21,052 nucleotides of DNA from a bacterium (GTDB taxonomy: Bacteria; Zhuqueibacterota; Zhuqueibacteria; Oceanimicrobiales; Oceanimicrobiaceae), in the NCBI GenBank assembly GCA_046757165.1, contig JBHHXT010000072.1:1-21052 (forward strand), given 5' to 3'. The notes beneath the pieces are model-generated. The model did not search any database. It was not told the DNA's origin and saw nothing but the letters and a program-made list of their open reading frames with translations. This document shows positions 1,301-18,070 of the stretch, piece after piece (positions within the stretch are counted from its first letter, which is position 1; each line of letters opens with the position of its first letter). The translations under genes and the position numbers were made by a program.

Positions 1301-1978
1301 ATGAAGATTCAAACCGCGTCAGTTTTGGCGGCGATACTTTGGTGCATCGCAGGGCTTATGGGATGTACTGATGTGTCGTCATCAGGACCGACACCCCCGG
1401 AGTTCAATTCGGAGTTTCGTTTCCTGAATGCCGCTTCTGAGCTGGGAGATGTCAGTATCACGCTGGATTTGGGGCCGAATATCAGCAATATCGGGTTCGG
1501 TGCAGCAAGTTCTCACCAGACCTACCCCTCTGGCAACCGGGTGGCGACGTTGAGCAATGGCGACACGCTGCGCATCGCCATGACAAGCGATCAGCGAGCA
1601 ACTGTCGTCATTTTGCCGATGACAAGCGAGACTCGCGAGTTTGTCAAGTTAGTTGAACGGCGCGTTTTTGACCCGCCAACGACGTCGACGGGTAGGCTGC
1701 GTCTGGTGCACGCGGGTGTGGCCGGCAGCGATGCCGGTGCAAGCGTGGACATCACCGTCGCTGGTCCGGATACGGTCAGCATTTCTGCGCTGGCATTCAG
1801 GGGGGACAGTGGTTATTTCAGCTTGACGCCTGGCAGCTACACCATCAGTGCTGTTGAGGCAGGCGGCGACGGGACGGTTATCGCCACGACCAGCGTCGAG
1901 GTCGGCAATGCGCGCGCGACCAGCGCTCTAACCGGTGATATGTCGTCATTGTCGTTCAGCAACCTTACAGATAACTAA
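1301..1978 (+). CDS. DUF4397-like domain lipoprotein
   Basis: SD AGGAGGTG upstream. Signal peptide with lipobox LMGC. Two internal repeats begin FRFLNAASELGDVSI and LRLVHAGVAG...VDITV, and the SGYFSLTPGSYTI motif is typical of DUF4397. Confidence 0.8.
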   Translation: MKIQTASVLAAILWCIAGLMGCTDVSSSGPTPPEFNSEFRFLNAASELGDVSITLDLGPNISNIGFGAASSHQTYPSGNRVATLSNGDTLRIAMTSDQRATVVILPMTSETREFVKLVERRVFDPPTTSTGRLRLVHAGVAGSDAGASVDITVAGPDTVSISALAFRGDSGYFSLTPGSYTISAVEAGGDGTVIATTSVEVGNARATSALTGDMSSLSFSNLTDN

Positions 1979-2039
1979 CGAATCGATGATTCACCAGAAT
2001 CTCGACAATCAAAGAACACAGGTTCAAAAGGAGGTAAGA

Positions 2040-5000
2040 ATGATTCGTAGATCATTTATGACCTTGTTCGCCGTGCTATTTTTGTCCTCCCTTGGTTTTT
2101 CACAAACGGGGAAGGTTTCCGGGAAAGTCGTAGACCGTGAAACAGGCGATGCGTTGCCCGGTGCCAACGTGGTCATTGTCGGAACGACCTTTGGTGCGGC
2201 CACCGATGTGACCGGTGAGTTCGTCATCCTCTCGGTGCCGACCGGAGTCTATACCTTGAGGTCATCATTTATTGGCTATCGCGACATCACCATCGAGTAT
2301 GTCAGGGTCAATTCTGGCTTGACCACCAGTCTGGAGTTCGCGTTGCCGAGCGAGGCCCTGGAGGTGAGCGAGATCAGCATCGTGGCTGAACGCCCGTTGG
2401 TGAACAAGAATTCCACCAACGCGGTTCGCATCCAGGGATATGATGACATGAAGAATTTGCCCATCCGTGGTGTGACCGCTGCCGTGGCGTTGCAGCCAGG
2501 CATTGTACAGTACAACGGCGAGCTTTACATCCGTGGGGGGCGCGAGAACGATGTCGGCTACTTTCTGGAAGGCGCCAATATTCGCGACCGCGATGGCGGC
2601 TCACAAGTTGCCCTGGGGGGAGCAAATCCGGTTGGTGTGATTCCCGAGGCACTGGAAGAATTTCAGATCCAGGCTGGCGGGTATACGGCTGAATTTGGCG
2701 GCGCCAACGCCGGCATTATTCGGCAGACGTTGAAAACCGGTGGCTCAGACTATAACTTTACGTTCCAGTTCGAGACCGATGACTTTACCAACGCCGGGGA
2801 GACGTTCTTCGACACATTTTCCTATGGGTACCGCGACCTGACGGCCACCCTCGGCGGTCCTGTTCCCGGGACGAACGATAGGCTTCGTTTCTTTGTCGCC
2901 GGTGAAAGAAGATTGACGACTGACTATATCCAACGCTTCAATCGTGGTTTCAACTTTCAGCATGTTGACGAGACCGAATTCAACGCCTTGAGCCAGGATG
3001 AGCAGCTGGCCTCCATCGCTCAGGGACGGTTCCCGATCATCCTGGAGGTGAGTCGAGATGCTGATCTGGAAGCCAGTCTGCAAAAACAGGGTCTGGTTTA
3101 CCTGGATGGCAACACCCCGAACGCCGATCGCGAAGAATGGGTGGGCAACGGCACGCTGGTGTTCGATGCCAATCCCCTCATTTTTCGTCTGGGGGGTTCC
3201 TTCAACTGGCGCCGGCAGGACGAGGTGATTGGCAACATTCCCAGCATGATCTTCAACAATCGCATCGAACAGGAAGAATTCAGCTCCGCGCTCATCAACC
3301 TGAAGGCCACCCATCTGCTGGGGGCGAAGTCATTCTATGAGCTCAACTTGAGCTACTTTGACCGTCGTGAGCACCAGTACGATCCCATCATGAGGGACAA
3401 CTTCTGGGCGCTGTGGGATAGTACGGCCAATGCGGCCCGGGGGGTGCAATTCTTCAACATCGACCAGCCCTGGCGCGGCGGCACACAGGTGATGGAAGTC
3501 TATGGGTTTGATTTTGAAGCACCTGGCTCACCGATCCAATCCAACACGGTCAAGACCAAGCGCAACTATTTTGGCGGAAGCTTCAATTTCACCACGCAGT
3601 TGCCGCAGCACGAGCTGAAGATCGGGGTGTCCTACGAGCGGTGGACGGTGCGAAACTTTTCCATCACCGCGCAGACAGCGCTAAACTTCTTACGCGGTGC
3701 ACGCCAGAATCCGGACATCCTGCGACAGGCCCTGGCCGGTGACCGCAGCGACCCGCAGGTCCTGGCTGCGCAGCGTAATCTCGGCGCCCTTGCTCGCGGC
3801 GTCTCGTTCAACTATGGCTACGACGTCTTCGGCAACGAGATCGATGTGGATGGCGTTGATGGCCCGAGACATCCGAAGTATTTTTCAGCCTACATTCAGG
3901 ATAAGTTCGAGGCCAGCGACCTGGTGATCAATGCTGGCGTGCGCCTGGATGTTATCGACAACGATGATTTCACCTTCAGCGATACATCCAATCCGCCGTG
4001 GGATCAGGCGAACTTCGGCCTGATTCAAGACCAGTTGCGGAAGGTCGATGCGCAGGTTGAAGTGAGCCCGCGTCTGGGGATTGCTTTCCCGGTGACCGAC
4101 CGCACGGTATTCCACCTGCAGTATGGGCGGTTTGTGCAAGCGCCACGCTTGACAGATATCTACAATGGCTCGAAGTGGTTCGATGACATCTTCACGGCCG
4201 GCAACACTTTCCAGTCCAATCTCGTCGGCCTGGGATTGAAGCCCGAGATTACCACGCAGTACGAGATCGGCTTCAACCAGCAGTTTTCGGACAACGCTGC
4301 CTTTGACGTGACCACGTTCTACAAGAACATCAAGGACCAGATTCAAGTGACGCGAATCACCACCATCGCTGCCACTGCGGCGGGTGATTACAATGTGCTG
4401 GCGAATCTGGATTTTGCCACCACGGCCGGGGTTGAGCTGTCGTTAACGTTGCGACGGACGAGCCGGGTGGCCGCACAGGTCAACTACACCTTCTCCAGAG
4501 CGCTGGGAACGGGGTCTGTTGCGAATTCGGCTATCTCAGGCATCGAGCAGCAGTCGGAGGTCCCGACGGCCATTTCGCCGCTGGATTTCCATCGGGCGCA
4601 GACCGGCTCGTTCAACCTCGACTATCGTTATGGTCGCGGGGATGGCGGCGCGATCCTCGAGCAACTGGGGGCCAACCTGCTGTTCACCTTTCAAAGCGGT
4701 CATCCGTACACCTTCGCGCGTGGGGATTTCGGCCAGCAAGATGAGTCTCTTGGGGGTCAAATCACGGACCCGCGTTCCAGGTTCCCGTTGGAGAACGTCA
4801 ATGCCTCCACCACGCCGTGGAATTTCCAAATCGACTTGCGCGTGGACAAAACGATCGACTTTGGCAAGTTCAACACGAACTTCTACGTTTATGTTCAGAA
4901 TATCACCAATCGCGAGAACGTCATCAACGTCTTCCAGCGCACGGGCAATGCTTTCGACGATGCGTTTCTGTCGGATGACCAGTTGAGCAACTCCGTGCTG

Positions 5001-5186
5001 ACTCGCCGGAACGAGGTCAACCCCGGTTTCGGTGCTGCTGCCTATGAGGCGTTGTATCGCGCTATCAACCTCGGGGGCAATGCGATCAACTTCCGGTCGG
5101 ATCTGACCGGGCCGCAGAATTTCAACGGCCTCGAGGTGCTCGGCGTGCCGCGGCAAATTCGCGTGGGGGCCCGCTTTGAATTCTAA
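2040..5186 (+). CDS. TonB-dependent receptor with N-terminal carboxypeptidase-regulatory-like domain (1048 aa)
   Basis: SD AAGGAGGT 2028-2035 supports ATG 2040. Signal peptide, then GKVSGKVVDRETGDALPGANV (CarboxypepD_reg-like). Plug motifs YIRGGR and GGYTAEFG. Barrel motifs SPRLGIAFP and LKPEITTQYEIG. C-terminal Phe (GARFEF). Confidence 0.93.
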   Translation: MIRRSFMTLFAVLFLSSLGFSQTGKVSGKVVDRETGDALPGANVVIVGTTFGAATDVTGEFVILSVPTGVYTLRSSFIGYRDITIEYVRVNSGLTTSLEFALPSEALEVSEISIVAERPLVNKNSTNAVRIQGYDDMKNLPIRGVTAAVALQPGIVQYNGELYIRGGRENDVGYFLEGANIRDRDGGSQVALGGANPVGVIPEALEEFQIQAGGYTAEFGGANAGIIRQTLKTGGSDYNFTFQFETDDFTNAGETFFDTFSYGYRDLTATLGGPVPGTNDRLRFFVAGERRLTTDYIQRFNRGFNFQHVDETEFNALSQDEQLASIAQGRFPIILEVSRDADLEASLQKQGLVYLDGNTPNADREEWVGNGTLVFDANPLIFRLGGSFNWRRQDEVIGNIPSMIFNNRIEQEEFSSALINLKATHLLGAKSFYELNLSYFDRREHQYDPIMRDNFWALWDSTANAARGVQFFNIDQPWRGGTQVMEVYGFDFEAPGSPIQSNTVKTKRNYFGGSFNFTTQLPQHELKIGVSYERWTVRNFSITAQTALNFLRGARQNPDILRQALAGDRSDPQVLAAQRNLGALARGVSFNYGYDVFGNEIDVDGVDGPRHPKYFSAYIQDKFEASDLVINAGVRLDVIDNDDFTFSDTSNPPWDQANFGLIQDQLRKVDAQVEVSPRLGIAFPVTDRTVFHLQYGRFVQAPRLTDIYNGSKWFDDIFTAGNTFQSNLVGLGLKPEITTQYEIGFNQQFSDNAAFDVTTFYKNIKDQIQVTRITTIAATAAGDYNVLANLDFATTAGVELSLTLRRTSRVAAQVNYTFSRALGTGSVANSAISGIEQQSEVPTAISPLDFHRAQTGSFNLDYRYGRGDGGAILEQLGANLLFTFQSGHPYTFARGDFGQQDESLGGQITDPRSRFPLENVNASTTPWNFQIDLRVDKTIDFGKFNTNFYVYVQNITNRENVINVFQRTGNAFDDAFLSDDQLSNSVLTRRNEVNPGFGAAAYEALYRAINLGGNAINFRSDLTGPQNFNGLEVLGVPRQIRVGARFEF

Positions 5187-5220
5187 GCAACCGTGTTTCG
5201 GCCTGATCCGGGGCCAGGTT

Positions 5221-5248
5221 CTGGCCGGCGGCTTCGGCCGCTGGCCGG
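5221..5248 (+). other. Intercistronic GC-rich hairpin with C(UUCG)G tetraloop
   Basis: CTGGCCGGCGGC-TTCG-GCCGCTGGCCGG (12 bp including G-U pairs) between the TBDR and cargo genes. Only a weak TCTCTTT tail follows. Confidence 0.6.
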
Positions 5249-5328
5249 TCTCTTTGATTCGTGACCGGCGGGCCGGGGACGGCGTTCTCACTCAATGGGC
5301 TAAATGTTAAATTGGAGGTAAAGGACAA

Positions 5329-8300
5329 ATGAAAAGAATTCGCACACTTCACCCTTTGTTTCTGATGTGTCTTCTCCTGTTTGGCGTCACGGCGTCATTT
5401 GCCACAGGGAAGGATGGGGCGAAGGACAATGTACTCGATGCCGTGATTACGCAGAACACGGCCAACCGTACGCTGGTCAACGTTGGCCAGGTGGCGATGT
5501 GGATTTATGCCAGCGGCCAATCTTCCATTACCCCGCAGGGGGGCTCAGGCTTGTTTTTCCCGCGGGGCAGCAATCCGACAACCTCCGCCATTTTCCAGGA
5601 TGGCCTGGTGTGGGGCGGGCAGGTCAGTGACGGTCAGGAACCGGTCATCCGGGTCGGCGGCGCACAGTACAACGTCGGCCATGTTCCCGGACGAATTCTG
5701 TCGCAAGGGGTGGCCGAAGACCGCACCGACCCGAGCGTGAACCGCATCTGGCGTGTCCGGCGGGATTTTCTGATCGCTGATTTGCGTCAGGACGCGGCGG
5801 AGGTCAACAACGTCAGGGCGGCTCAGGTATCGGAGGCTCAAATCGAGCAACTGCGGGACACCTACCGGCAGGACTGGATCGATTGGCCGGCCGCCAGCGG
5901 GGCGCCGTTTTATGATGCAGACGGCGATGGTCAGTACACGCCCGCGTTCAACAGCGATGGCACGCCCAGGCTAGCCCCCCGGGGCGATCAGGAGTATGAC
6001 CCGGAGGTGCACGCTGACGAGCCTGGTATCGCGGATGCGGACCAGGTGGTATGGCTGGTGTCCAACGACCTGGACCGGGCGACGTTGAGCAACTTTTCAG
6101 GGGCGCCGCCCATCGGCATCGAGCAGCAGATTACCCTCTGGGCCTATGCTCGTGCCGATGCGCTCGGACAAATCATTTTCAAGCAATTCCGTCTGATCTA
6201 CAAAGGGGACACCAACACCCCGTCAACGGCAAGAGTGGACAGCATGTACATTTGCCAGTGGTCCGACCCTGACGTCGGCAGCTCTGGCGACGACCTGGCC
6301 GGCTCCGATACGACGTTGAGTCTTGGCTATGCCTACAATTCCAACGCTCAGGATGCCGTTTATGCGTCGGCCGGTCTGCCGCCGCCGGCGTCTGGCTATG
6401 ACTTTTTTGCCGGTCCTCTGGTGAGAGATGCGGATGGCGAGGCCATTTTCGGGCTGGAAAAACGTCCTGGCTGGCGCAATCTGCCCATGACGACCTTTGC
6501 GTCCTTCTCGGCCGGCAGCCAGGCTTCTGACCCGGCTCCGCTCGGGACGTTCAATGTGACCCTGCAGTGGTTCAACCTGCTGCGGGGCTTCCTGCCGCGT
6601 CCGGAGTCGCCGGCGACGCCGTTTATCGACCCGACGACCGGTCTGGCGACCAAGTTCACGCTCTCCGGCGATCCGATTGCGAACACAGGCTGGGTGGACC
6701 AGGGTTCGGGCGACCGTCGAATCCTGCTCTCCTCCGGGCCGTTTACCATGGCCTTAGGCGATACGCAAGAGACAGTCGTTGCGACGCTCGCCGCTATCGC
6801 CACGGACCGGCTTTCGAGTGTGGCGCTGTTGAAGTTTGTGGACCGGTTTGCCCAGGAAGCCTTTGACAACCTGTTCGAGCTGCCGAAACCGCCGGCCACG
6901 CCAGTTGCGTTTGCCAGCGAGCTCGATGGCCAGATTATTCTGAACTGGGGTGGTGATGAGACCGCCGTCAGCGCAACGGAGGGGCATAATGACAAAGGCC
7001 ATCTGTTCGAAGGCTACGATATCTACCAACTCCCTTCTGCCGGCGCCACAGCCGACCAGGGCGTGAGAATCAGGACCTTTGATGTTGTCAACGATTTCAC
7101 CACGATTTCGCAGGAGGCCTTTGATATTCCGTCAGGTCTGGTTTTGAGCCTGCCGGTGCAATTTGGCAGCAACAGCGGAATTCAGCGTACGACGGTGCTT
7201 TCAGCGGACAAGATCCGCGGGTTGAAGTTGGTCAACGGCCAGACCTACTTTTTTGGCGTTTCTGCCTACAGCAACAACCCGGATCCGAGCGCGACCATCA
7301 AGTCGCTCGAGAGTACCATGGCCGTCGTCACGGTTGTGCCGCAGACCAGCAAGCCGGGCGTGCGGTTGCAAGCCGCCTTCGGCGATACGGTCTCGACCAT
7401 CGAGCACGTCAATCTTGCTGGCGGGCCTCTGAGTGATGGCAAAGTGCTGCCCATCGTGAGTGATCCAACTGCGATTACGGGGGACGATTACTCTGTGAGC
7501 TTCAGAGAGGTGATTGCAGACATCGACCTCTCTGATCCCGAACACCCGGATACGACCACTCAGATCGTCTGGGATCTGGTGAACCTCACAACCGGAGACA
7601 CGGTGTTGGCGGCGCAAGCGAACCAGAGCGGCGATGAAACCTACCTGACCGCGGACGGGTTGCAGGTCAAAGTTCTTGGCGCGCCTCTGGCCATTGCGTC
7701 GGCGCCTGGCTCCCAGGCGGACGGCCTTGTCGAAGTGGCGGCGGACGGTCAGCCCTTGCCCGAGTCGGCCTGGGATGGAGCCGGAACGCCGTTCGGTGGC
7801 AATAAGGTGTGGCATAGTCTCAATGCCGGTGGGTTTTCCGACCGCTACTACGTGAGCGCCGGCGGAGGGACCGGACAGCTTTCCCGTCTGGCAAGAAGCG
7901 TTCAAAACCTCGTTCCATTTGACCTTGAAATGCGCTTCACCACACCGGAGGAGGGCAGCCTCGGTTGGTGGGCATTTACCAATGGCGCCGTCTCAGCAGT
8001 TCCCTTCCAGCTCTGGCGCACGGGCATCGGAACGCCGGATGATCCGAGTGATGACATCCGGTTGCTGCCCCTGATTTTCAGCTCCGGCACCGACGACGCC
8101 TGGGATATTACGTATCCCGATCCCTGGCAGAGCGGCGCCTTTCTCTGTACTGACTGGACCTATTGGTATTTCGATGCGCGCGGCTACGACGCCTTCGCTG
8201 CAGACGCGGCTGACGGCATCGTGGATGATGGCTCATTTGGCACGGTCGAATACATCGCACGCATGACCGTTTGCGACTTCGACGCCAACGGCCAGGTGGC

Positions 8301-8739
8301 CGGGCCCGGGTATGTGATTCGAATCAACACGACCAAACCCAATTCTCTTGATGACAAATTCACCTTCTCGACCCGGCAGTATGTCAAGACCGAATCGCAG
8401 TCTGTGGCGAAACAAGACGTGAGCGAGTTGGTGAACGTTTTCCCGAATCCGTACCTGGGGGTCAACCGTTTCGAACAGAACCGGTTCAACCGGCGGGTGA
8501 CGTTCAGTCATCTGCCTGCGCGCGCCACGATCCGCATATTTAACTTGGCTGGAATTCTGGTCAGGACGCTGCGCAAGGACGATGCAGCGCAGTTCATGGA
8601 CTGGAATCTGGTGAACGAGAGTGGCTTGCCGGTAGCAAGCGGACTCTACATTGCGCACATCGAGATGCCTGACCTCAAGGCGTCGAAAAACCTGAAGCTT
8701 GCTATCATTCAAGAACAGCAGTTCCTGAGAAGATTCTAA
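5329..8739 (+). CDS. Large secreted protein with T9SS type-A (FlgD Ig-like) C-terminal sorting domain
   Basis: SD GGAGGT and a Sec signal peptide. DADGDG Ca-binding-like motif. FN3-like segment (PKPPATP...IILNW...FEGYDIY...NGQTYFFGVSAY). C-terminus VNVFPNPY...TIRIFNLAGILVRTL...WNLVNESGLPVASGLYI matches the type-A CTD pattern. Confidence 0.85.
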   Translation: MKRIRTLHPLFLMCLLLFGVTASFATGKDGAKDNVLDAVITQNTANRTLVNVGQVAMWIYASGQSSITPQGGSGLFFPRGSNPTTSAIFQDGLVWGGQVSDGQEPVIRVGGAQYNVGHVPGRILSQGVAEDRTDPSVNRIWRVRRDFLIADLRQDAAEVNNVRAAQVSEAQIEQLRDTYRQDWIDWPAASGAPFYDADGDGQYTPAFNSDGTPRLAPRGDQEYDPEVHADEPGIADADQVVWLVSNDLDRATLSNFSGAPPIGIEQQITLWAYARADALGQIIFKQFRLIYKGDTNTPSTARVDSMYICQWSDPDVGSSGDDLAGSDTTLSLGYAYNSNAQDAVYASAGLPPPASGYDFFAGPLVRDADGEAIFGLEKRPGWRNLPMTTFASFSAGSQASDPAPLGTFNVTLQWFNLLRGFLPRPESPATPFIDPTTGLATKFTLSGDPIANTGWVDQGSGDRRILLSSGPFTMALGDTQETVVATLAAIATDRLSSVALLKFVDRFAQEAFDNLFELPKPPATPVAFASELDGQIILNWGGDETAVSATEGHNDKGHLFEGYDIYQLPSAGATADQGVRIRTFDVVNDFTTISQEAFDIPSGLVLSLPVQFGSNSGIQRTTVLSADKIRGLKLVNGQTYFFGVSAYSNNPDPSATIKSLESTMAVVTVVPQTSKPGVRLQAAFGDTVSTIEHVNLAGGPLSDGKVLPIVSDPTAITGDDYSVSFREVIADIDLSDPEHPDTTTQIVWDLVNLTTGDTVLAAQANQSGDETYLTADGLQVKVLGAPLAIASAPGSQADGLVEVAADGQPLPESAWDGAGTPFGGNKVWHSLNAGGFSDRYYVSAGGGTGQLSRLARSVQNLVPFDLEMRFTTPEEGSLGWWAFTNGAVSAVPFQLWRTGIGTPDDPSDDIRLLPLIFSSGTDDAWDITYPDPWQSGAFLCTDWTYWYFDARGYDAFAADAADGIVDDGSFGTVEYIARMTVCDFDANGQVAGPGYVIRINTTKPNSLDDKFTFSTRQYVKTESQSVAKQDVSELVNVFPNPYLGVNRFEQNRFNRRVTFSHLPARATIRIFNLAGILVRTLRKDDAAQFMDWNLVNESGLPVASGLYIAHIEMPDLKASKNLKLAIIQEQQFLRRF

Positions 8740-8756
8740 GCAGCCCCCGTACTCTG

Positions 8757-8794
8757 CTAACCGATTCCAGCGCTGAAGCGATGGAATCGGTTAG
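8757..8794 (+). other. Intercistronic hairpin between cargo and PorV-like genes
   Basis: CTAACCGATTCCA (8757-8769) pairs perfectly with TGGAATCGGTTAG (8782-8794), with an inner CGC-TGAA-GCG. No U-tract. Confidence 0.65.
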
Positions 8795-8848
8795 ACTATC
8801 GGGTTGGGAATTCAACGAGTCCAGCAAAGTTACAAGGAGAAAATAAAC

Positions 8849-9883
8849 ATGAAAAGTTCAGTTCATAAGATGGTGATTCTTTGCCTGGCCATATTGTTCC
8901 TGGCCAGCGTTGAGGGAATCGCACAGGAGCAACGGATCGGCACAAATTCTGCGTCAGAGCTTCTGATTCCGGTGGGCGCACGGTACATCGCCATGGGCGG
9001 CGCCTCGATCGCGACCGTGCAGGGGGTGGACGCCATTTTCTGGAACCCCGCTGGCGTGGCGCGGTCGGATTATTCAGCCGATGTGACGTTTTCACACATG
9101 CAGCATCTCGCCGATATCAACATCAACTACGCGGCTTTGAGCATCAAATTCGGCAGTGTTGGCACGTTCGGGTTCAGCATCAAGGCGATGGATATCGGCG
9201 ATATCGTCGTGACCACGGAAGTCGCTCCCGATGGCACGGGCGCTTTGCTGAGTCCCCAGTTCATCACCGGCGGGTTGACCTATTCGCGCGCCCTGACCGA
9301 CCGCATTTCGGTTGGCGGAACCATCAATTTCATCAGCGAGACCTTCGAGCGTGTCAGTGCCAGCGGTGTCGCGCTCGACCTGGGGGTCCAGTACCGCGAT
9401 TTGGCGAGTATCAATGGCCTGAGCCTGGCAGTCGCAGTCAAAAACCTGGGGCCGAGCCTGAAGTTTGGCGGCTCTGGTTTGTTGGGCTCGGCTCAGCTCG
9501 ACGAGGTTGATCGTGGTGCGACCCCGCTTTTGATTCAGGCTCAGGACGACGAGCTGCCGTCCTACATCGTCATCGGGGCCTCCTACATGGTGAACCTGGG
9601 CGAGACCAGCAGTCTGGAGCTGGCGGGAACATTTCAGGATAACAACTTTCAGGATGACACCGGCCAGTTTGGCGCAGAGTACAACTATAACAATTTGTTC
9701 TTTGCGCGCCTCGGGTACACCGTCTCGCCAGATGCCGCAAATGATGCGCACATCTACGGCGCAACGTTGGGTGCCGGCATTCACCATGATTTTCCCAATA
9801 TCGGCCTCACCATCGACTATGCCTACAGGGATGTCGATTTTTTCGAAGCGAGCAATGTGTTCTCAATCAGATTGGGTTTTTGA
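8849..9883 (+). CDS. PorV/PorQ family outer-membrane beta-barrel protein
   Basis: SD AAGGAG and signal peptide. Hallmark N-terminus LLIPVGARYIAMGGA...AIFWNPAG. Alternating beta-strand pattern and C-terminal Phe (SIRLGF). Confidence 0.9.
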   Translation: MKSSVHKMVILCLAILFLASVEGIAQEQRIGTNSASELLIPVGARYIAMGGASIATVQGVDAIFWNPAGVARSDYSADVTFSHMQHLADININYAALSIKFGSVGTFGFSIKAMDIGDIVVTTEVAPDGTGALLSPQFITGGLTYSRALTDRISVGGTINFISETFERVSASGVALDLGVQYRDLASINGLSLAVAVKNLGPSLKFGGSGLLGSAQLDEVDRGATPLLIQAQDDELPSYIVIGASYMVNLGETSSLELAGTFQDNNFQDDTGQFGAEYNYNNLFFARLGYTVSPDAANDAHIYGATLGAGIHHDFPNIGLTIDYAYRDVDFFEASNVFSIRLGF

Positions 9884-9916
9884 GCCGACCAACAGAACAT
9901 AAGTTGCTGTATTGTC

Positions 9917-9952
9917 AAGGGGTTGGAGCGACCACGCTCCAACCCCTTTTTT
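9917..9952 (+). terminator. Rho-independent terminator
   Basis: AAGGGGTTGGAGCG-ACCA-CGCTCCAACCCCTT (14-bp perfect stem) ending in a T6 run, 33 bp after the PorV-like stop. Confidence 0.92.
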
Positions 9953-10150: not shown

Positions 10151-11143
10151 TTGCAGAATTTACCTTTGATCTTAACTGCCCCTCCTTTCTTCTATGGCGT
10201 CGGGTCTGCCTACCAGTTTGCTGCCGGCCCATTGCTCTACCTGTATGTCCGATCGACACTGGATAAGGACTTCAAGTTTACGATAGCCGACCTGCTGCAT
10301 TTTATCCCATTCTTCGTTTTTCATTTTGGTGCGTTTCCGGACTTATTTCCTGGTGCGTCTGATAATATCACGATTCAGTTCCTGGTTTGGCATCTTCAGC
10401 CCCTTGTGTACGCGGCTTTGTTGATTCGGCTGCTGCACAATAATGCCCTTATCAACAAAGAACAGTATCCGACGGACAGCAAGGTTAGTTTCAGGTGGAT
10501 GCGCAACGTATTTTACTCATATGGTGCCATCTGGCTTGTGAAGTCGTGTGTGGAGCTGGCTTTGCCTTACGAGGTTTACAGCCAAAAACTTTATTACATT
10601 GCTGCTTCTGTCGTGTTGACTGCATTCCATGTCTATATTATTGCTTACCTCGGGTTCAATCGTTCTGAGTCCAGCGCGGAGGGGGACGAGCCGGTTGAAC
10701 GCTACAAAGGCTCACGATTGTCAGAGAAGATGTCCAGGGAGTACTTGCACCGACTCATTCACGATATGGAAACCGAGAAGTCCTTTACTGACCCGAAACT
10801 GACCCTGGCGGTACTGGCAAGCCGGCTGGCTATCAACAGCCGCTATCTTTCGCAAGTCATCAACGAAAACCTCGGACAGAATTTCTATGACTTTGTGAAC
10901 GGATACCGAATCGAGGAGGCCAAAAGGAGGCTGACAGACCCGGAGAAGGATAAATACACCATCGAGGCAATCGCCTTCGAGGTGGGTTTCAATTCAAAGG
11001 CCGCCTTCTACAGTACATTCAAGAAACAAACGAAGATGACCCCTTCGCAATTCAAGGAGATGAGCAAGACCTCCTCCTGTGCCATTCCGGCCGGTGCCAA
11101 TGGCCGGAACCTTTACCCGTCTGACAATCCGCATTCGGCTTAA
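10151..11143 (+). CDS. Membrane-anchored AraC-family transcriptional regulator (possibly N-terminally truncated)
   Basis: About 5 hydrophobic segments (GPLLYLYV, LHFIPF motifs), then YKGSRL and FTDPKLTLAVLA...YLSQVINE...NFYDFVNGYRIEEAK...IAFEVGFNSKAAFYSTFKK (AraC HTH). TTG start with a weak SD, and an in-frame TGA at 10112 limits upstream extension. Confidence 0.88.
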   Translation: MQNLPLILTAPPFFYGVGSAYQFAAGPLLYLYVRSTLDKDFKFTIADLLHFIPFFVFHFGAFPDLFPGASDNITIQFLVWHLQPLVYAALLIRLLHNNALINKEQYPTDSKVSFRWMRNVFYSYGAIWLVKSCVELALPYEVYSQKLYYIAASVVLTAFHVYIIAYLGFNRSESSAEGDEPVERYKGSRLSEKMSREYLHRLIHDMETEKSFTDPKLTLAVLASRLAINSRYLSQVINENLGQNFYDFVNGYRIEEAKRRLTDPEKDKYTIEAIAFEVGFNSKAAFYSTFKKQTKMTPSQFKEMSKTSSCAIPAGANGRNLYPSDNPHSA

Positions 11144-11305: not shown

Positions 11306-12733
11306 ATGATGGATCGTGTGTCAGGTTTCCGCCCCCTTGTCGTTGCCGCTTTCGTGGTCAGCCTCATGGTCGTCCCTCCTGTCCTGGCGGACAGTGGCAT
11401 TCAACCCAGTATCGATATGGCGCAGTTCAAGGATTCACAGAACAATTCGTATATGGAAATCTATTATTCCATTCCGGAGGTGGGGATGAACTACATGCCC
11501 GACGGCAGCGGCAAATTCGCCTGCCAACTGGTTCTGGATATCGAAATCCATCGGGACAGTCAGCTCTGGGCGAACAAAGTCTGGAAGATCGAAAAGACGG
11601 TTGCAGACACTTCTTCGGTGGCCGCCGGCAGCCAGATGGTCGACGTCGTTCGCTATCTCGTGGAACAGTCCGGCGAATACAGGATCTCTATGCGCATCAA
11701 GGATATGCACCACACAGACCGAGTCGATAGCGCGCGAGCTGTCTTTCAGGTTTCTCCCTTCACCGGAGAGGCGGTAGAGATCAGCGATGTTGAGCTGGCC
11801 TCACATATCAAGAAGATGGCCCCGGGTTCACAAAGCAATCTGATCAAAAATACCTACAAGGTAACGCCGAATCCCGCGGGCATCTTTGGTGAAGGCGCTG
11901 CAAGTATCTACTACTATTTTGAAGCCTATAACTTGAAGACCCATCTCGAGGGCGACCACTATAAAAGCGTGTGCAAAGTGATCGATTCCAATGGCGTCGA
12001 GAGGGAGGGGCTTGGCATTACCTATCGGCCCAAGAAAAAGTTGTACAATACCAGTATTGAAATCGGTATGTTGAACATCTCCAATCTGCCCTCAGGCAAA
12101 TATCGCTTGCTCTATGGCATTGCCGACGAGTCAAAAACAATGATTGCAAGTAAGGAAAAAATGTTTTATGTTTATAACCCGAATGTCTTTGCGGCGGAGG
12201 TTTTGCAGGAAGGCAGGTTCGGTCCCCTGGAAGAGCTGAGCGAAGCGGAATTGGATGACGAGTTCGCTAAACTGATCCACATCAACACCAAAGACGACCG
12301 GGAGTTCTATGGCAGCCTGAACAACGTGCAGGGAAAGAGGGAGTTTATTTTTTCTATCTGGTCCAGGGCCAATGACAACCGCCTGCCGCCGCTGGTCTAT
12401 CGCGAACAATACTTAGGCCGGGCTCATTATGCGAATGATAAATTCAAGTCCATCTTTGCCAAAGGCTGGAAAAGCGACCGGGGTCGTGTGTTCATTCTCT
12501 ACGGCGGGCCGTCGGACATTGAACGCTTCGCCAGCACAGAGACCACGGTGCCCTATCAAGTGTGGACGTACGACAAGTTGAAGGGACAAGGCGGGGTTCA
12601 GTTCGTTTTTGCCGACAAAGGGGGATTTAGCAAATATGAATTGCTACACTCTGATTTGCGAGGTGAAAGAAGAAACGATTCATGGAAAACGGAGGTGTTT
12701 CGAGGAAGCAATGAGAGACAGTTCAGGAACTAA
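11306..12733 (+). CDS. GWxTD domain-containing exported protein
   Basis: Signal peptide and a beta-rich N-terminal region. C-terminal ANDKFKSIFAKGWKSDRGRVFILYGGP...YQVWTY...FVFAD matches the GWxTD domain, with Ser at the Thr position. Confidence 0.88.
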   Translation: MMDRVSGFRPLVVAAFVVSLMVVPPVLADSGIQPSIDMAQFKDSQNNSYMEIYYSIPEVGMNYMPDGSGKFACQLVLDIEIHRDSQLWANKVWKIEKTVADTSSVAAGSQMVDVVRYLVEQSGEYRISMRIKDMHHTDRVDSARAVFQVSPFTGEAVEISDVELASHIKKMAPGSQSNLIKNTYKVTPNPAGIFGEGAASIYYYFEAYNLKTHLEGDHYKSVCKVIDSNGVEREGLGITYRPKKKLYNTSIEIGMLNISNLPSGKYRLLYGIADESKTMIASKEKMFYVYNPNVFAAEVLQEGRFGPLEELSEAELDDEFAKLIHINTKDDREFYGSLNNVQGKREFIFSIWSRANDNRLPPLVYREQYLGRAHYANDKFKSIFAKGWKSDRGRVFILYGGPSDIERFASTETTVPYQVWTYDKLKGQGGVQFVFADKGGFSKYELLHSDLRGERRNDSWKTEVFRGSNERQFRN

Positions 12734-13499
12734 ACTTCTTATTCTGGCCATCGGCCTGTTCAGCTTGATTTCGTGCCGTAAGAGCGACAGCATCACCATC
12801 AATGCGCTGCCGCAAGAAATTGGTTCGGAGCTTTACTTTCGAGGATTTGTGACTGACGAAGAAGAGCAGTTGGTCAGCGAGATTCACAATTTTAGCAAGA
12901 AGGTAACCCGTCGAGACACCGTAGACGGCAAGCCGGTTTTTGTCTACACGGTGGGCTCCGGCAACGCTGCCGACAGAACGAAGGAGAGCTACTTTTACAC
13001 CGATGAAGATGGAACCGTGTGGGAGCACAACACCACGGACGTGGGCGCTCAGCTTGTCGCCTATGGCTTTTCTTATCGCAATCCAATCCTGTTGCCAGCC
13101 TGGCAGACACTGCTCAAAGTCGATGAGGGAGAGGGTACTGAATGGCAAATTGACATCGACACCACTTATTCTGCAATCACCTTATCTGGCGAGACTCAGA
13201 CCGTGCGTTATGTCAAGCACGGCAGGGCACGTTATGAAGGATGGTCCGAAACTTTCCTGCCTGAGCCTTACAAATACATCCCGGCTCTGGATGTCTACTG
13301 GTACGAGCTGAGAACAACCATCATCAATGAAACCACCTCTGACACTCTTTTTGCGACTGAGGGGATTGCGCATCAATATTTTACACCTGAGCTGGGCGCC
13401 GTGAAGTACGTGACCAATTTCACGTTGTATGAGCAAGGCAAGGAAGCGGTTGCACGGCGCGGCACCTGGGAATTGATGCGCAAAGAATTATCGGAATAA
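12711..13499 (+). CDS. Hypothetical lipoprotein (beta-rich)
   Basis: ATG 12711 preceded by GAGGA gives MRDSSGTKLLILAIGLFSLISC with lipobox LISC. Overlaps the GWxTD gene by 23 bp. Confidence 0.78.
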   Translation: MRDSSGTKLLILAIGLFSLISCRKSDSITINALPQEIGSELYFRGFVTDEEEQLVSEIHNFSKKVTRRDTVDGKPVFVYTVGSGNAADRTKESYFYTDEDGTVWEHNTTDVGAQLVAYGFSYRNPILLPAWQTLLKVDEGEGTEWQIDIDTTYSAITLSGETQTVRYVKHGRARYEGWSETFLPEPYKYIPALDVYWYELRTTIINETTSDTLFATEGIAHQYFTPELGAVKYVTNFTLYEQGKEAVARRGTWELMRKELSE

Positions 13500-13602
13500 T
13501 AGCCTCTTCCGTCTTGTATTTAGAAGTGATCCGCTAAGCCCATCGATTGAGTTGATAACACCGGCCAGGGAAGTTATATTAAGGTCATAAATGCGAAAAC
13601 GC

Positions 13603-13640
13603 TTGCCCCGTACACCGGTGGGAACTACATTATAATCATT
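13603..13640 (+). promoter_or_regulatory. Putative sigma70-like promoter with overlapping weak Fur-box-like core
   Basis: TTGCCC (13603-13608), 17 bp, TACATT (13626-13631). CATTATAATCATT (13628-13640) matches 11/13 of the Fur core AATGATAATCATT. Confidence 0.3.
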
Positions 13641-13766
13641 CCTTCTCATTCTTGCAGAAAAATGCCAGAAAGTGACAGGGAATAGGGCCGGGGATGCGGC
13701 TTTTTGCCGTGCTGGGGATTGACAGGAATCGTCTTACGCAAGCATCTAATCTCGAGGTGGTCCGCC

Positions 13767-16067
13767 ATGTTCTCTTCCAAAAGCTTCTATCCTCTCATCT
13801 TTGTCTGTGCGCTGGTGCTGACAAACCCCCTCCTTGCACAGGAAAACGTGGCCACGGGGGTGGTCAGGGATAAGAATACGTACCAGCAAATTCGCTCGGT
13901 CAACATTTTCGTGAAGGGCTCGAAGACGGGAACCACGACGGACCTGTCTGGCAAATATCGTTTAAGGGTGCCCGGGAGCCGCGGAGACCTGGAGAATCGC
14001 GATGTGTCAGTTGTCGTGTTTCAGCATATTGCCTACTACGAGCGGGAGATTCCTGTGACGCAGTTGTTGAAGATGGACCGCATCTATCTCCAGCCTCGTG
14101 TCATCCCTCTCAGCTCGGTGGAGATCGAAGAGGAGGGCGTCCGCCATCTTGAAATTGAAAAGGACTTGCCGCAGGCCGTCTCGGTGATTGAATCCAGAGA
14201 TTTTGAAATCCGTGGCTACGTGGACGCCGGAGATTTGCTGAGAATCGACAACAGTGTGCAAGTCGATGAGGATCTGAGCGGGAGCAAAACGGTGTCCATT
14301 CGCGGGGGCAATCCTGATGAGGTCATCATCTTGTTCAACGGCGTGAAGATGAATAATGCCTACAACAACGTTTTCGACCTGTCCTTGATCGACCTGGAAG
14401 ATGTGGAGAGGTTCGAGCTGATCAAGGGCAGCAACACGGCCCTGTACGGGCCAGAGGCTTTCTCTGGCGTCGTCAACATCGTGCCGAAAGTGGAGCAGGA
14501 TTACACCATTCGGTTTCAGCAGCGCGTCGGCACGTATCGCTCCGGTAACTGGGGGTTGCATTTTTACAAGCGTTTCAACCGGTTGTACGGGTCATACAGC
14601 ATCAAAAGGGGGGGCTTTGGCCGGAGTTTCGTCAACGATGGCGGGAATCTCGAGAATAGCTCGTTGCACCACACCGCCACACTGAACTATGATGTCGGAG
14701 CCAACGAAGTTGGACGTCCGGCAGGGACCCTGAGCGCAATGTGGATTTACAGCTCGTTGGATTATCGACAAGAGGAGCGAGGGGAGCCAGTTGGGACGGG
14801 CGAAGAAAACGCCATTGAGTTTACCAACGATATTGAGAATTTCAACAACATGATTTCCCTGAAGTACAGCGGGCAATTGTTCGGCCAGGAAGGCTTTGAT
14901 CTGTCCACCTCATACAAGAATCTGGATCAGGACCAGTTGGTTCTCAATCGAGCCGATGCGCCCAGGATGCGAGAAATCCTGGATCGTGCCTTTCTGCTGA
15001 ACGTACAAAAACAATTTCAAATCTCGAAGGTTGACCTCCTTTTCGCGTACCAGTTCCAGATGAGTGAGCTCGAACAGTTGGACGAGAACGTGGGCCAGGA
15101 CCTCGGCAGGACACACCACGGGGCCGTGTCTATTTTGAAGTATCATGGTGACACCGGTTCGGACTTCTTTCAATCCATGGACCTGGATCTGAGCATTCGC
15201 CACGACCGCGTGCAAGACAAGCAAGAAAACGTCGAATTCTTTGGAGAATTCGGTGACCGTGGCGGATTTGGGTTGTTTGCGGACAATGCCTGGAATGCGA
15301 CCAATTTCAAGTTTTCGGTGAGCCTGGCCGGGTACCGCGAGAATCTGTCGCTCAAGAGCTACTTCAATTTTGGCGCGAATACCAAGTTTCCGACGCTTTT
15401 TCAGCAAATCAGCTCGGCGGATCCTCTGGCCTCAGGGGCGACCACTCCGAACCTCAGTCCGGAAAAAAATCGCAGCTTTGAATTTGGGATCACCGTTGGA
15501 AAAGACGTGCGCGAGCACACCAGCATTTATGGCTGGCAGGTGAGCGGCAGCTATTTTCAAAATCACTACGATAACAAGTTTCGAATGTTCATTACGCAGA
15601 TCACCGATCCAACTCCGTCCTTCGATAATGTTCAGAATGCCAACATTAGCGGGTTTGAAGGTCGGGCCATCGCGTTTCTGTTCAAAAAGAAGATTTCTGC
15701 AGAGCTCGGTATCTCGAAGTATTTTCTTTCTGATCAATCAAGCTTCCCGTTCAAATCGGACAATAAGAAGTCTCTGACGGTGAGCATAGACCACGCCGGC
15801 TATGCGTTTCAGCTCTATTGGTTCAGGGAGGGCGACCAAGTTGCCCTGTTGAGAAACTTTGGAACTGGCGAGTTCAACTCCGAAGTGCAAGGGCTTCCGA
15901 GTCAAACGAATCTGGATGTTCATCTGAGCAAAACTTTCGAGATTTCGAAGTTGAGATTCTTTGCCAATGCCAGTGGACGAAATTTGCTCAATGATGAGGA
16001 CACGGTGTTGCGGGGTCTGGCCATCCGCGACCGGCGGTTTTACCTGACGGTGGGCGTGCAATACTGA
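13767..16067 (+). CDS. TonB-dependent receptor (766 aa) with N-terminal carboxypeptidase-regulatory-like domain
   Basis: SD GAGGTGG before ATG 13767 and a signal peptide. Plug motifs SIRGGNPDEVIILFNGV and VERFELIKGSNTALYGPEAFSGVVNI. Barrel motifs NLSPEK and RNLLN. Aromatic C-terminus GVQY. Confidence 0.92.
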   Translation: MFSSKSFYPLIFVCALVLTNPLLAQENVATGVVRDKNTYQQIRSVNIFVKGSKTGTTTDLSGKYRLRVPGSRGDLENRDVSVVVFQHIAYYEREIPVTQLLKMDRIYLQPRVIPLSSVEIEEEGVRHLEIEKDLPQAVSVIESRDFEIRGYVDAGDLLRIDNSVQVDEDLSGSKTVSIRGGNPDEVIILFNGVKMNNAYNNVFDLSLIDLEDVERFELIKGSNTALYGPEAFSGVVNIVPKVEQDYTIRFQQRVGTYRSGNWGLHFYKRFNRLYGSYSIKRGGFGRSFVNDGGNLENSSLHHTATLNYDVGANEVGRPAGTLSAMWIYSSLDYRQEERGEPVGTGEENAIEFTNDIENFNNMISLKYSGQLFGQEGFDLSTSYKNLDQDQLVLNRADAPRMREILDRAFLLNVQKQFQISKVDLLFAYQFQMSELEQLDENVGQDLGRTHHGAVSILKYHGDTGSDFFQSMDLDLSIRHDRVQDKQENVEFFGEFGDRGGFGLFADNAWNATNFKFSVSLAGYRENLSLKSYFNFGANTKFPTLFQQISSADPLASGATTPNLSPEKNRSFEFGITVGKDVREHTSIYGWQVSGSYFQNHYDNKFRMFITQITDPTPSFDNVQNANISGFEGRAIAFLFKKKISAELGISKYFLSDQSSFPFKSDNKKSLTVSIDHAGYAFQLYWFREGDQVALLRNFGTGEFNSEVQGLPSQTNLDVHLSKTFEISKLRFFANASGRNLLNDEDTVLRGLAIRDRRFYLTVGVQY

Positions 16068-16268
16068 GGAGCGCACGAGAATTTGAGAATGACAATAAAG
16101 AAACAGGCTTGACTTGATGGACTTGCCTGACGACGATAGGATAGCAGAAAATTTCCTCACGCACAGATTGTGTGAAAACCGCAGGGGCCGGGTAACGGTC
16201 CAACGCACTCTCCGGTTGTGTCTTTTGTGTTTCACTCAGTCTGGCATCTAACTTCAAGCAGGGATGGC

Positions 16269-17144
16269 ATGAAGATTACAGGATTGCTAGGGTGCATTGC
16301 AGCATTCCTGGCTCAGGGATGTGTAAACAACCCCTTTGGCAGCAGCGATATTTCACTGCGCGGGAGACAAATCGAGGGAACGGTGCGCTTAGACAGCAAC
16401 GCGCCGCCTGCTGGCGTCTATGTCTGGCTGGAGGGGTTCGATCTGGCCACTCGCACTGATTCACAGGGCCATTTCAAGGTGACGCTGCCGCCGCCATTCT
16501 CACGTCCTGCCAGTGACGGCATCTCCGGTGCGTTTAGCCTTTATTACTACGTTGCGAATTTTGCCCTTGCAGCCACCCGCATCGCAACACAGGAGGGGCG
16601 AATCGTCAACGCGGATATTGAGATGAACGCGGACGGGACGTTGCTGGAGCCCGTGCTTTTGAAGCAGAGACTCAGGATTGACACCCGTGTGCGTCCCGCG
16701 GTGGTTTCTAACTCGCAGATCACGGTAACCGGCGGGCTAACGGATTTTCTGCTGCGCGTCGATGTCACGCTGCAGGCGATACGAGACTCGGTCCTGGTCA
16801 CCTTCCCGGGCGTGGTCGATGGCATGTTCGGGCCGTTGATGTTCCGCAACCTCGAGACCGATGACGTGAGGGTCTTGAGCTCGACCATCGCGGGCGTGGT
16901 TTCCAGTGCTTATGATACGGTCAAGACGGATCCGCACGTGCGGACGATGGTGGTGCCAATCTTTCCGGACGACCTGGAAGTCGGGGAATACGAGGTCATC
17001 CCCTATCTGTTTGTAGAAGATGAGCCCGTGCCGGACGGGATACGAAAGCGCTTGCGAATTGAATTCATCGGTCCGGGGCCGGATTATCTCGAGATTCCCT
17101 TCTTGCGCACCGGAGCTGGGAGGACCGTCAAGATCATACCATAA
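16269..17144 (+). CDS. Hypothetical lipoprotein with N-terminal carboxypeptidase-regulatory-like domain (paralog A)
   Basis: MKITGLLGCIAAFLAQGC lipobox-like start. RQIEGTVRLD...VYVWLEGFDLATRTDSQGHF. Collinear with the next gene. Confidence 0.82.
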   Translation: MKITGLLGCIAAFLAQGCVNNPFGSSDISLRGRQIEGTVRLDSNAPPAGVYVWLEGFDLATRTDSQGHFKVTLPPPFSRPASDGISGAFSLYYYVANFALAATRIATQEGRIVNADIEMNADGTLLEPVLLKQRLRIDTRVRPAVVSNSQITVTGGLTDFLLRVDVTLQAIRDSVLVTFPGVVDGMFGPLMFRNLETDDVRVLSSTIAGVVSSAYDTVKTDPHVRTMVVPIFPDDLEVGEYEVIPYLFVEDEPVPDGIRKRLRIEFIGPGPDYLEIPFLRTGAGRTVKIIP

Positions 17145-17167
17145 CTGCTTTACTACCGGAGGGTGAG

Positions 17168-18070
17168 ATGTTGGTTGTTAGAATGATGAGCTGGACCATC
17201 TGGTTTCCGCTCTTTGCTGCTGCCCTGCTTGTGGTCACAGGCTGCGAGGAGAATCCCGTCGGCGGCGATGAGGGGATCTCCGGGGCGAACCGCCAGATCA
17301 CCGGCACCGTGCGATTTGATACCAATATCGAGCCTGCGAATGTCTATGTCTGGTTGGACGGGTTCGACCTCAACACCCGAACCGACCGCACCGGCAAGTT
17401 TGAATTGGTGCTGCCGCCGTCCGCTGCCCAGGGGAGGAGCGGGATCACCGGTGCTTTCAACCTCTATTATTACATGGGAAACTACACCTTTGCTTCGACA
17501 GAAGTGGTCACTAAAGATGGCGAGTTTGTCTACGACACCGAGGAAATCAGCGCCGACGGCCAGCTTCGTGAGGCTGTGCTGTTGTTTCAGAGGCTGAGGA
17601 TCAGGACCGCAGTGCGTCCCGGTTCGGTTTCGCGCTCCGCCATCACTGTCACAGGTGGAAAGTCCGATTTTGTCATGGCCGTGGATGTCACGCTGCAGGC
17701 TGCTCGGAATGATACGGTTATTGTCTTCTTTCCGGCGACTGTGGAGAGTCGCACCGGACCCTTGTTGTTTCGGAATACCGCTACCGATCAGGTCACCGTG
17801 CTCAATTCGATAGTGGCAGAACAGGTCACCAGTGCTCTGGACACGGTCACGGCGGCTCAGAAGGTGCGCACCATGGAAATCAATTTGTTTCCGGACGATC
17901 TCGGCGTCGGCGAGTATGAAATCATCCCCTACCTGCTGGTCGATGATGTTGAGTTGCCGGCCGGCTTGCGAGACGAGCTTGGCCTGGACGTTCTTCTTCC
18001 CGGCGCACCCTACCTGAAGATTCCCTTTGTGCGCGATGGCGATCAACGCGTCTTCACCGTGGATGAGTAG
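17168..18070 (+). CDS. Hypothetical lipoprotein (paralog B)
   Basis: Signal peptide with lipobox VTGC. Shares VYVWLxGFDLxTRTD, LYYY, QRLRI, ITVTGG, VDVTLQA, FPDDLxVGEYExIPYL and YLxIPFxR with the upstream gene. Confidence 0.85.
   Translation: MLVVRMMSWTIWFPLFAAALLVVTGCEENPVGGDEGISGANRQITGTVRFDTNIEPANVYVWLDGFDLNTRTDRTGKFELVLPPSAAQGRSGITGAFNLYYYMGNYTFASTEVVTKDGEFVYDTEEISADGQLREAVLLFQRLRIRTAVRPGSVSRSAITVTGGKSDFVMAVDVTLQAARNDTVIVFFPATVESRTGPLLFRNTATDQVTVLNSIVAEQVTSALDTVTAAQKVRTMEINLFPDDLGVGEYEIIPYLLVDDVELPAGLRDELGLDVLLPGAPYLKIPFVRDGDQRVFTVDE

Follow-up and report, generated by a model that had tools for sequence, protein, structure and literature searches.

SusD, BtuG and XusB are lipoprotein lids of TonB-dependent transporters. 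For type IX secretion systems (T9SS), complexes of PorV with the C-terminal domain (CTD) of a cargo protein have already been solved (PMC10994853), and the stated rule assigns a single general PorV to all type A cargo and reserves dedicated carriers for type B (PMC12635249). PorZ and PorU have uncleaved CTDs and that of PorZ is retained (PMC11285876), and with PorZ staying on PorQ, the retention of a CTD protein by its cognate PorV-like barrel is already published (PMC10202324). In Cytophaga hutchinsonii, PorV was co-purified with SprA and a PorF-like TonB-dependent receptor (PMC8564354). We here describe a locus in a 21,052-nucleotide stretch of DNA from a bacterium of the Zhuqueibacterota (GenBank assembly GCA_046757165.1, contig JBHHXT010000072.1; the whole stretch is called the window), in which a TonB-dependent transporter (TBDR), a 1136-aa CTD protein and a PorV paralog are encoded side by side. 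The three genes are referred to as the trio, and the CTD protein and its homologs as the cargo. The trio is a real and conserved module, apparently undescribed, and we consider the chances about even that it forms a SusD-free uptake unit in which the PorV-anchored cargo is the surface partner of the TBDR. The operon is composed as follows.

1301..1978, forward strand: DUF4397 lipoprotein, 225 aa, lipobox Cys22 (Pfam PF14344, 50.5 bits against a cut-off of 30.6).
2040..5186, forward strand: TBDR, 1048 aa, with a CarboxypepD-like N-terminal extension, a plug, a 22-strand barrel and long extracellular loops.
5221..5248, forward strand: internal GC-rich hairpin in the TBDR/cargo gap, 12 pairs with a TCTCTTT tail (-28.1 kcal/mol for 5215-5262).
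5329..8739, forward strand: secreted cargo protein, 1136 aa, no Pfam match, with a C-terminal PorZ-like CTD and an 8-residue tail.
8757..8794, forward strand: hairpin in the gap between the cargo and PorV-like genes, 13 pairs, no U-tract (-33.5 kcal/mol for 8740-8810).
8849..9883, forward strand: PorV/PorQ-family barrel, the dedicated paralog, 344 aa (PorV_fam NF033709, 179.4 bits against 90).
9917..9952, forward strand: intrinsic terminator ending the operon, a hairpin of 14 pairs followed by a U6 tail (-27.3 kcal/mol).

The original prediction, made from the letters of the window, had described four co-oriented genes with strong Shine-Dalgarno sites and gaps below about 145 bp. The open reading frames (ORFs) were confirmed; the gaps measure 61, 142 and 109 bp, and every start has a GGAGG or AGGAG ahead of it. 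The terminal terminator it named is present as well, but it is not the only hairpin of the set, as two lie inside, the first of which (5221-5248) is possibly a leaky terminator or an mRNA-stabilising element. In 80% of 108 trios, the PorV gene has a hairpin of -18 kcal/mol or below on its 3' side, as compared with a strong hairpin after the TBDR or cargo gene in 23% of 109 (both counts without shuffle control), and the unit therefore normally ends at PorV.

Conservation of the gene order was surveyed from two sides. The cargo-centred set combines 80 hand-picked regions with the 80 best-scoring loci out of 577 from genomes and the 80 best-scoring out of 252 from metagenomes and, being chosen in this way, favours close homologs; it contains 211 unique cargo ORFs, 175 of which have room on both sides and are evaluable. 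The order TBDR-CTD-PorV, anticipated in the original prediction, was found at 140 of these 175 loci, with neither neighbour present at 28, the TBDR only at five and PorV only at two; by source, the full trio occurs in 32/59 loci from relatives, 58/64 from genomes and 50/52 from metagenomes. In the TBDR-centred set (79 new loci, omitting those of the cargo set and a few at contig ends), the cargo follows close TBDR homologs in 72 of 75 evaluable cases and the full trio is seen in 60 of 63. The exceptions are L297, which has no cargo, L344, which has no PorV, and L339 (5201-6844), a scoring miss with an overlapping ORF start that is a real trio, its cargo internally shortened to part of the N-domain plus the CTD, with the tail kept. 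Record titles name KSB1, Calditrichota, Ignavibacteria, Latescibacterota, Gemmatimonadota, Handelsmanbacteria and Kryptoniota. The closest cargo homologs that have a name carry the labels KSB1, Calditrichaeota and Deferribacteres, which suggests that the window's organism is of KSB1 type. The ORF that reads through from cargo into PorV at L167 (4232-8788) comes from a record rich in frameshifts; it is probably an artefact and was not taken as a fusion.

The window's genome (6.09 Mb, 99.98% complete) has six complete trios, and two more CTD/PorV pairs are located on contigs cut upstream. Among its 144 CTD proteins, a PorV-family gene follows 14, a TBDR precedes seven and both apply to six; thus, a PorV-family gene follows 6/7 TBDR-preceded CTD genes as opposed to 8/137 others. 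A second lipoprotein-TBDR-cargo-PorV copy is found on contig C49 (7973-16456, L087), with a 71% identical TBDR, a 67% identical cargo and the same tail. Co-phylogeny of the three genes, a check named in the original prediction, was assessed in trees of 161 trios by comparing splits with support of at least 0.95, and these strong splits mostly agree (identical/conflicting: TBDR/PorV 69/2, TBDR/cargo 74/17, cargo/PorV 60/5). What the trees show is block inheritance rather than physical co-evolution. Covariation was analyzed for the 161 paired trios, 136 after removal of near-duplicates, the uncleaned run being dominated by an artefact of near-identical rows. In the cleaned run, 8/11 strand pairs among the top 50 are on adjacent barrel strands, and inter-chain covariation in the 136 trios is no higher than in nearest-neighbour-swap controls, with the intra-barrel signal itself only partly recovered.

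The barrel of the trio is PorV-like, exceeding the family cut-off and matching PorV 6h3i_F by profile (E 3.9e-23), yet it remains below the equivalogs of both PorV (77.7 vs 250 bits) and PorQ (92 vs 220 bits). Better candidates for PorV, PorQ and PorV2 are present on contigs C11, C15 and C63 of the same genome (PorV 232.1 bits on C11, PorQ 193.6 bits on C15), and the window barrel is therefore an extra paralog, which agrees with the dedicated PorV paralog originally proposed, the housekeeping candidate being the one on C11. It is not of the PorP/SprF type (TIGR03519 20.6 vs 90.55 bits), and the cargo matches no type B CTD family. The original prediction had referred to PorV binding type A CTD cargo; a CTD is indeed present, all-beta in the structural model and best matched by the PorZ model (E 4.6e-8), but it is below the type A cut-off (TIGR04183 17 vs 23 bits). 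Together with the PorZ candidate of the genome and one S8 protease, eight trio-type CTDs form a clade comprising 10 of the 144 CTDs (support 0.956).

The cargo CTD ends in a tail, whose length was counted in the alignment from a conserved Lys in the last CTD strand. Exactly 13 residues follow this Lys, equivalent to an 8-residue tail, in 158/160 PorV-linked cargos, the last residue of the 158 being F in 73, Y in 70, L in 13 and I in 2. Among 42 unlinked homologs, 33 have at most 10 residues, six have 13 and three have 12, 19 or 22, and the six with 13 are mostly tandem copies or have a PorV further off. As the tail-less unlinked homologs are distributed over 13 places of the N-domain tree (some nodes weakly supported), the pattern suggests that tail and PorV linkage were repeatedly lost together. 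At L030 and L216 the TBDR is kept with PorV and tail both absent, and hence PorV rather than the TBDR would be the partner of the tail. In Porphyromonas gingivalis, proteins with C-terminal extensions are still exported by the T9SS (PMC11285876). Tandem arrays of three to four tail-less cargos with no PorV gene were observed in three relative genomes (L020, L024 and L031 in G004, G005 and G003, respectively).

A model of the PorV-CTD complex, the interface foreseen by the original prediction, scores 0.91 compared to 0.00 for the best control; the mark set for such models is reached by 116/157 solved and 2/215 mismatched pairs. Contacts agree to at least 80% between runs with a partner pLDDT (predicted local distance difference test) of at least 76, and on the CTD side include residues 1036-1041, 1071-1078, 1100-1106 and 1127-1131. 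The PNPY motif, the beta3-beta4 loop and the last-strand motif take part in the modelled contacts. That the model passes the mark may be due to likeness to the solved complexes and not to cognate specificity. Considering alignments and model together, the idea of a private barrel appears well supported. The window's genome further contains six pairs of a CTD gene and a PorV-like gene that have no TBDR (C17, C48, C51, C70, C104 and C153; L095, L100 and L103-L106), and some of their barrels carry C-terminal TPR, SH3 or CARDB+OmpA domains. This suggests that private barrels are a genome-wide strategy.

The TBDR is a TonB-dependent transporter according to its AlphaFold2 (AF2) model (pLDDT 90.2, predicted template modelling score (pTM) 0.89), which displays a plug and 22 barrel strands (DSSP count), and its fold matches reach Z 37.2. 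The 50 matches listed are generic TonB-dependent transporters with none standing out; SusC structures are not among them, although the listing does not exclude SusC. The extracellular loops measure up to 85 residues in the model, and the long ones are poorly conserved. The designation as SusC-type has to be withdrawn, as TIGR04056 gives 63.9 vs 368.25 bits and matches the N-terminal extension only, placing the protein outside SusC/RagA. Its neighbourhood is also unlike a SusC/SusD polysaccharide utilisation locus (PUL) or utilisome, with no adjacent SusD and no co-located glycoside hydrolase; family hidden Markov models detected neither among the 14 window proteins scanned, in line with the original prediction, whose term 'utilisome' nevertheless overreaches, there being no co-conserved carbohydrate-active enzymes (CAZymes). 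Elsewhere, the genome holds five SusC loci over cut-off and one SusD.

The AF2 model of the cargo (pLDDT 86.5, pTM 0.76; insert less confident, CTD end disordered) is divided into the following parts.

aa 45-517: beta-supersandwich N-domain (AF2 model; fold matches over 43-517).
About aa 523-675: FN3-like domain (model strands; fn3 match in the C10 paralog).
aa 785-1003: Ig-like domain with a hypervariable insert (labelled from model strands and the fn3 match in the C10 paralog).
About aa 1022-1128: PorZ-like CTD (PorZ model, E 4.6e-8).
aa 1129-1136: C-terminal tail, 8 residues.

The fold search effectively tested about residues 43-517 only. Its top match is dextran dextrinase 9ju0 (VIA Z 19.1, rmsd 3.4, 258 aligned), and glucodextranase, GH94/GH65 phosphorylases and mutarotase-like proteins are also similar, at 4-12% identity (Z 19.1-11 for the 50 matches listed). 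No helical barrel, which we take to be the catalytic part of the matched enzymes, follows the supersandwich, the model being nearly all beta after residue 517. Without this barrel and without a Pfam match, the cargo falls outside the GH15/GH65/GH94 enzymes, and its N-domain is, as modelled, a beta-supersandwich of the carbohydrate-enzyme type minus the catalytic barrel. Several carboxylates (E265, D313, D322, D327 and D462) are invariant in 111 sequences, which would fit metal or ligand binding, or catalysis. Clustered at 50% identity, the N-domain family comprises 4,385 representatives (E<=0.001); Pfam has no model for it. A cargo-profile sequence search of the PDB returned nothing significant (best E 0.097, PorZ E 0.67), and the ESM Atlas yielded only unnamed clusters for the N-domain and scores <0.8 for the variable insert. 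Residues 785-1003 are decoupled, with a median identity of 27% and r = 0.24 with the TBDR. In an HH comparison, the C114 cargo is linked over 727 columns and the C10 and C47 cargos via the CTD only; hence, common ancestry of all cargos is not established. A DxDGDG motif at residues 196-204 (window about 5914-5940) resembles a calcium-binding loop and shows a D196-T204 covariation signal.

Of the core T9SS genes to be expected in the genome, SprA and PorU are present, as is a PorZ candidate (259.8 vs 260 bits), but GldL, GldM and GldN were not found; diverged forms are possible, and GldK was not searched. Eight TonB_C matches and 16 PorV-family genes are over cut-off, and SprA occurs in 5/5 trio genomes from other lineages. 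GldM was detected in 0/167 genomes of the window's phylum and in 9/41 of a control sample of the phylum Bacteroidota, in which cargo-profile matches (E<1e-20) occur in 0/9 GldM-positive vs 23/32 other genomes. This mutual exclusion is confounded by lineage and profile reach. In the window's phylum, the T9SS thus seems to work without any motor that can be recognised.

We propose that the SusD-free uptake unit would operate in the following manner. The cargo would be exported via the SprA translocon, as its CTD and the T9SS genes of the genome indicate. It would then be received by its own PorV paralog, and not by the general PorV, and be held there by the uncleaved PorZ-like CTD, the 8-residue tail acting as a sub-family-specific lock between the two. 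With binding as modelled and retention as we infer it, this step is highly probable. Tethered in this manner, the cargo would sit beside the co-encoded TBDR as its surface partner, the supersandwich binding, and maybe processing, a glycan or glycoconjugate, with the swappable insert tuning specificity. Import through the TBDR would be driven by TonB-ExbBD, and the lipoprotein would be a lineage-specific extra. The retention of PorZ on PorQ and the co-purification of PorV with a TBDR in C. hutchinsonii are precedents and count for an anchored partner. More tentatively, and with somewhat less than even confidence, the trio can be viewed as a widespread three-part outer-membrane machine, in which the T9SS equips a TonB-dependent transporter with a lid that is not a lipoprotein, PorV paralogs read cargo-specific C-terminal tags (in the present case the 8-residue tail of exact length) and the insert sets specificity. 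In the boldest form of a T9SS-installed lid, TonB force exerted via the TBDR may replace the missing GldLM motor at the translocon exit.

Several observations weigh against the uptake unit or parts of it. Tree agreement is expected from linkage alone. The closest TBDR homolog (76%; L297, in the relative genome G004) stands in a lipoprotein-TBDR-TBDR order without cargo. In 91 tail-less homologs only 4/136 conserved N-domain positions drop below 45%, and the domain therefore has a job of its own, its conservation not being TBDR-specific. Five other trio-type cargos of the window's genome have no tail, so that the tail is not a general rule, and the PorV-CTD model leaves the final five residues of the tail unplaced, which is uninformative either way. 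No co-conserved hydrolase, inner-membrane transporter or SusD was found among 70 hand-picked flanking proteins, and the recurrent trio neighbours, i.e. GWxTD, sigma54 regulator, PIG-L-like and SerA-like genes, are unlike a PUL. Finally, the exclusion of GldM and cargo fits a secretion role equally well.

The conserved N-domain bears directly on a reading in which the cargo is a surface enzyme or adhesin, held by PorV and acting alone, with the TBDR importing products independently and without physical coupling. The invariant acidic residues are also retained in N-domain homologs that occur outside the trio and have ordinary CTDs, and GH174 fucanase 9k1g matches the N-domain over most of the enzyme (Z 13.2, rmsd 4.0, 236 aligned). 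However, the domains at the top of the fold search come from enzymes that have a helical catalytic barrel, which the cargo lacks, and the 1:1 adjacency at 72/75 TBDR loci combined with block duplication would be tighter than expected for a loosely coupled enzyme, leaving this reading unlikely. The GldM pattern, in turn, favours a TBDR that is a private PorF-like secretion aid, TonB force freeing or assembling the PorV-cargo pair off SprA without GldLM, for a cargo that is structural or adhesive. Substrate release is the step of the T9SS that requires energy (PMC10994853), PorV co-purified with a PorF-like TBDR (PMC8564354) and the trio has no catabolic neighbours among the flanking proteins considered. 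Yet about 130 ordinary CTD proteins without adjacent TBDR need another energy source, the long variable loops of the TBDR look like those of a ligand-facing importer, and the exclusion itself is confounded as stated above; we regard such an aid as distinctly unlikely.

PorU, which is encoded in the genome, raises the question of a PorV paralog that is a dedicated shuttle, delivering the cargo to PorU for cleavage and release or linkage to lipopolysaccharide (LPS), perhaps to act as a hemophore-like partner of the TBDR. The general PorV releases type A cargo (PMC12635249), and HasR-HasA, a TBDR using a released partner, is represented by 3csl among the TBDR fold matches listed. However, the cargo CTD groups with that of PorZ, which is retained (PMC11285876), and a tail of exact length is lost together with PorV linkage, and we judge a shuttle improbable. 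Instead, the DUF4397 lipoprotein could be the real lid, similar to BtuG or XusB, and the CTD protein a passenger. The lipoprotein gene is directly 5' of that of the TBDR, its relatives share a conserved C-x-D-V-P start in the lipobox region, and at L297 lipoprotein and TBDR occur together without cargo. Nonetheless, it precedes the TBDR in only 26/108 evaluable cargo-centred trios (24/54 TBDR-centred), and is thus absent from 82/108, with the cargo nearly always present. The lipoprotein, for which a sequence search of the PDB found nothing, is an accessory and optional component of one cassette sub-clade; the self-contained four-gene set of the original prediction consequently reduces to three, and a lipoprotein lid is very improbable. 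Secretion of the cargo through the TBDR itself, as proposed for Oar and PopC of Myxococcus (PMC6434023), followed by capture by the PorV-like barrel, is scarcely credible for a cargo with a T9SS CTD in a genome with SprA, where a multi-domain protein of 1136 aa would be hard to reconcile with a plugged barrel of 22 strands.

A conserved neighbour of the trio is located downstream of the terminator.

11306..12733, forward strand: GWxTD-domain protein (TIGR04514, 69.9 vs 28), a recurrent downstream neighbour.

A GWxTD gene comes after PorV in 40/100 cargo-centred and 41/58 TBDR-centred evaluable trios, the latter being from the window's phylum. It encodes a signal peptide, sits past the terminator at many loci (L011, L012, L298-L362) and is probably transcribed separately from the trio. 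The window's genome has 16 GWxTD-like ORFs, and the term 'GWxTD' was found in no paper of the literature searched. A gene for a membrane-anchored AraC-type regulator (10151-11143) is placed between the PorV and GWxTD genes, and looks like an insertion as these two are adjacent in most relatives. Upstream of the operon, the window has a lone receiver-domain gene (543-1106), with a full sigma54 response regulator at the same place in relatives (L009, L013, L014, L017, L036, L065 and L111). A strict sigma54 motif is absent from the window and was present in 3/111 trio upstream regions, with about one expected from shuffles, and a sigma54 promoter as a general trio feature was rejected on this basis. 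On the flanks of a second TBDR (13704-16067, in the region 12609-18070) stand one gene probably encoding a lipoprotein and a pair of similar genes, probably for lipoproteins as well (16218-17144 and 17168-18070), with weak CarboxypepD matches. In another clade (L036, L037, L154 and L176), a gene for an about 790-aa protein with a PIG-L-like deacetylase domain follows PorV, which might point to N-acetylated ligands or to envelope glycans. The 70 flanking proteins give no substrate hint; their single GH77 is found beside a non-trio locus.

If the proposed uptake unit is correct, relatives of Bacteroidota outside Bacteroidia (KSB1, Calditrichota, Ignavibacteria, Latescibacterota, Gemmatimonadota and Kryptoniota) gain a counterpart of SusC/SusD, and the trio blurs the rule of one general PorV for type A cargo. 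The tail would also offer a direct handle on the question, raised in PMC10202324, of what enables a cognate PorV-like barrel to choose a single CTD and protect it. The original prediction considered the architecture uncharacterised. This applies to the coupling of a barrel-retained CTD protein to a TBDR, which we did not find described, but not to the retention of a CTD by a barrel as such, published for PorQ-PorZ. The literature searched, which lacks most subscription papers, yielded no account of either trio or tail, although such loci could be mentioned in supplementary gene tables; the passages of PMC12204202 and PMC5317091 contain nothing on the trio.

Comparisons to characterized systems place the trio in-between several of these. 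As in the PorQ-PorZ and PorV-PorU pairs of P. gingivalis, a PorV-family barrel would hold a CTD protein, and the cargo CTD groups with the PorZ of the genome. However, equivalog scores place the window barrel in neither PorV nor PorQ, the cargo is no sortase and no carrier of LPS and has an extra 8-residue tail on its CTD, and the pair shares its locus with a TBDR gene and occurs in several copies per genome. Similar to SusC/SusD (RagA/RagB), BtuB/BtuG and XusA/XusB, an N-extended TonB-dependent transporter occurs 1:1 with a large surface protein of sugar-associated fold. In contrast to SusC/SusD, the transporter is outside TIGR04056 and has no co-located CAZymes, and the cargo, differing from the lids of these systems, is not a lipoprotein, is unrelated to SusD and would be anchored by a barrel. 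The adjacent carrier dedicated to each cargo as its anchor is reminiscent of type B cargo such as SprB-SprF (PMC12635249), but the carrier here belongs to the PorV family, clearly below the PorP family cut-off, and the CTD is type-A/PorZ-like. PorF (PG0534) and CHU_1606 are likewise TonB receptors linked to the T9SS, co-purified with PorV in C. hutchinsonii (PMC8564354), but are described as a general T9SS component and not as a member of a repeated cargo-specific cassette. The supersandwich fold of the N-domain is shared with GH15, GH65 and GH94 enzymes and galactose mutarotase-like proteins, though at 4-12% identity and with FN3, Ig and CTD domains in place of the helical catalytic barrel. 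The trio would thus resemble PorQ-PorZ in anchoring and probably SusC/SusD in uptake, while belonging to neither.

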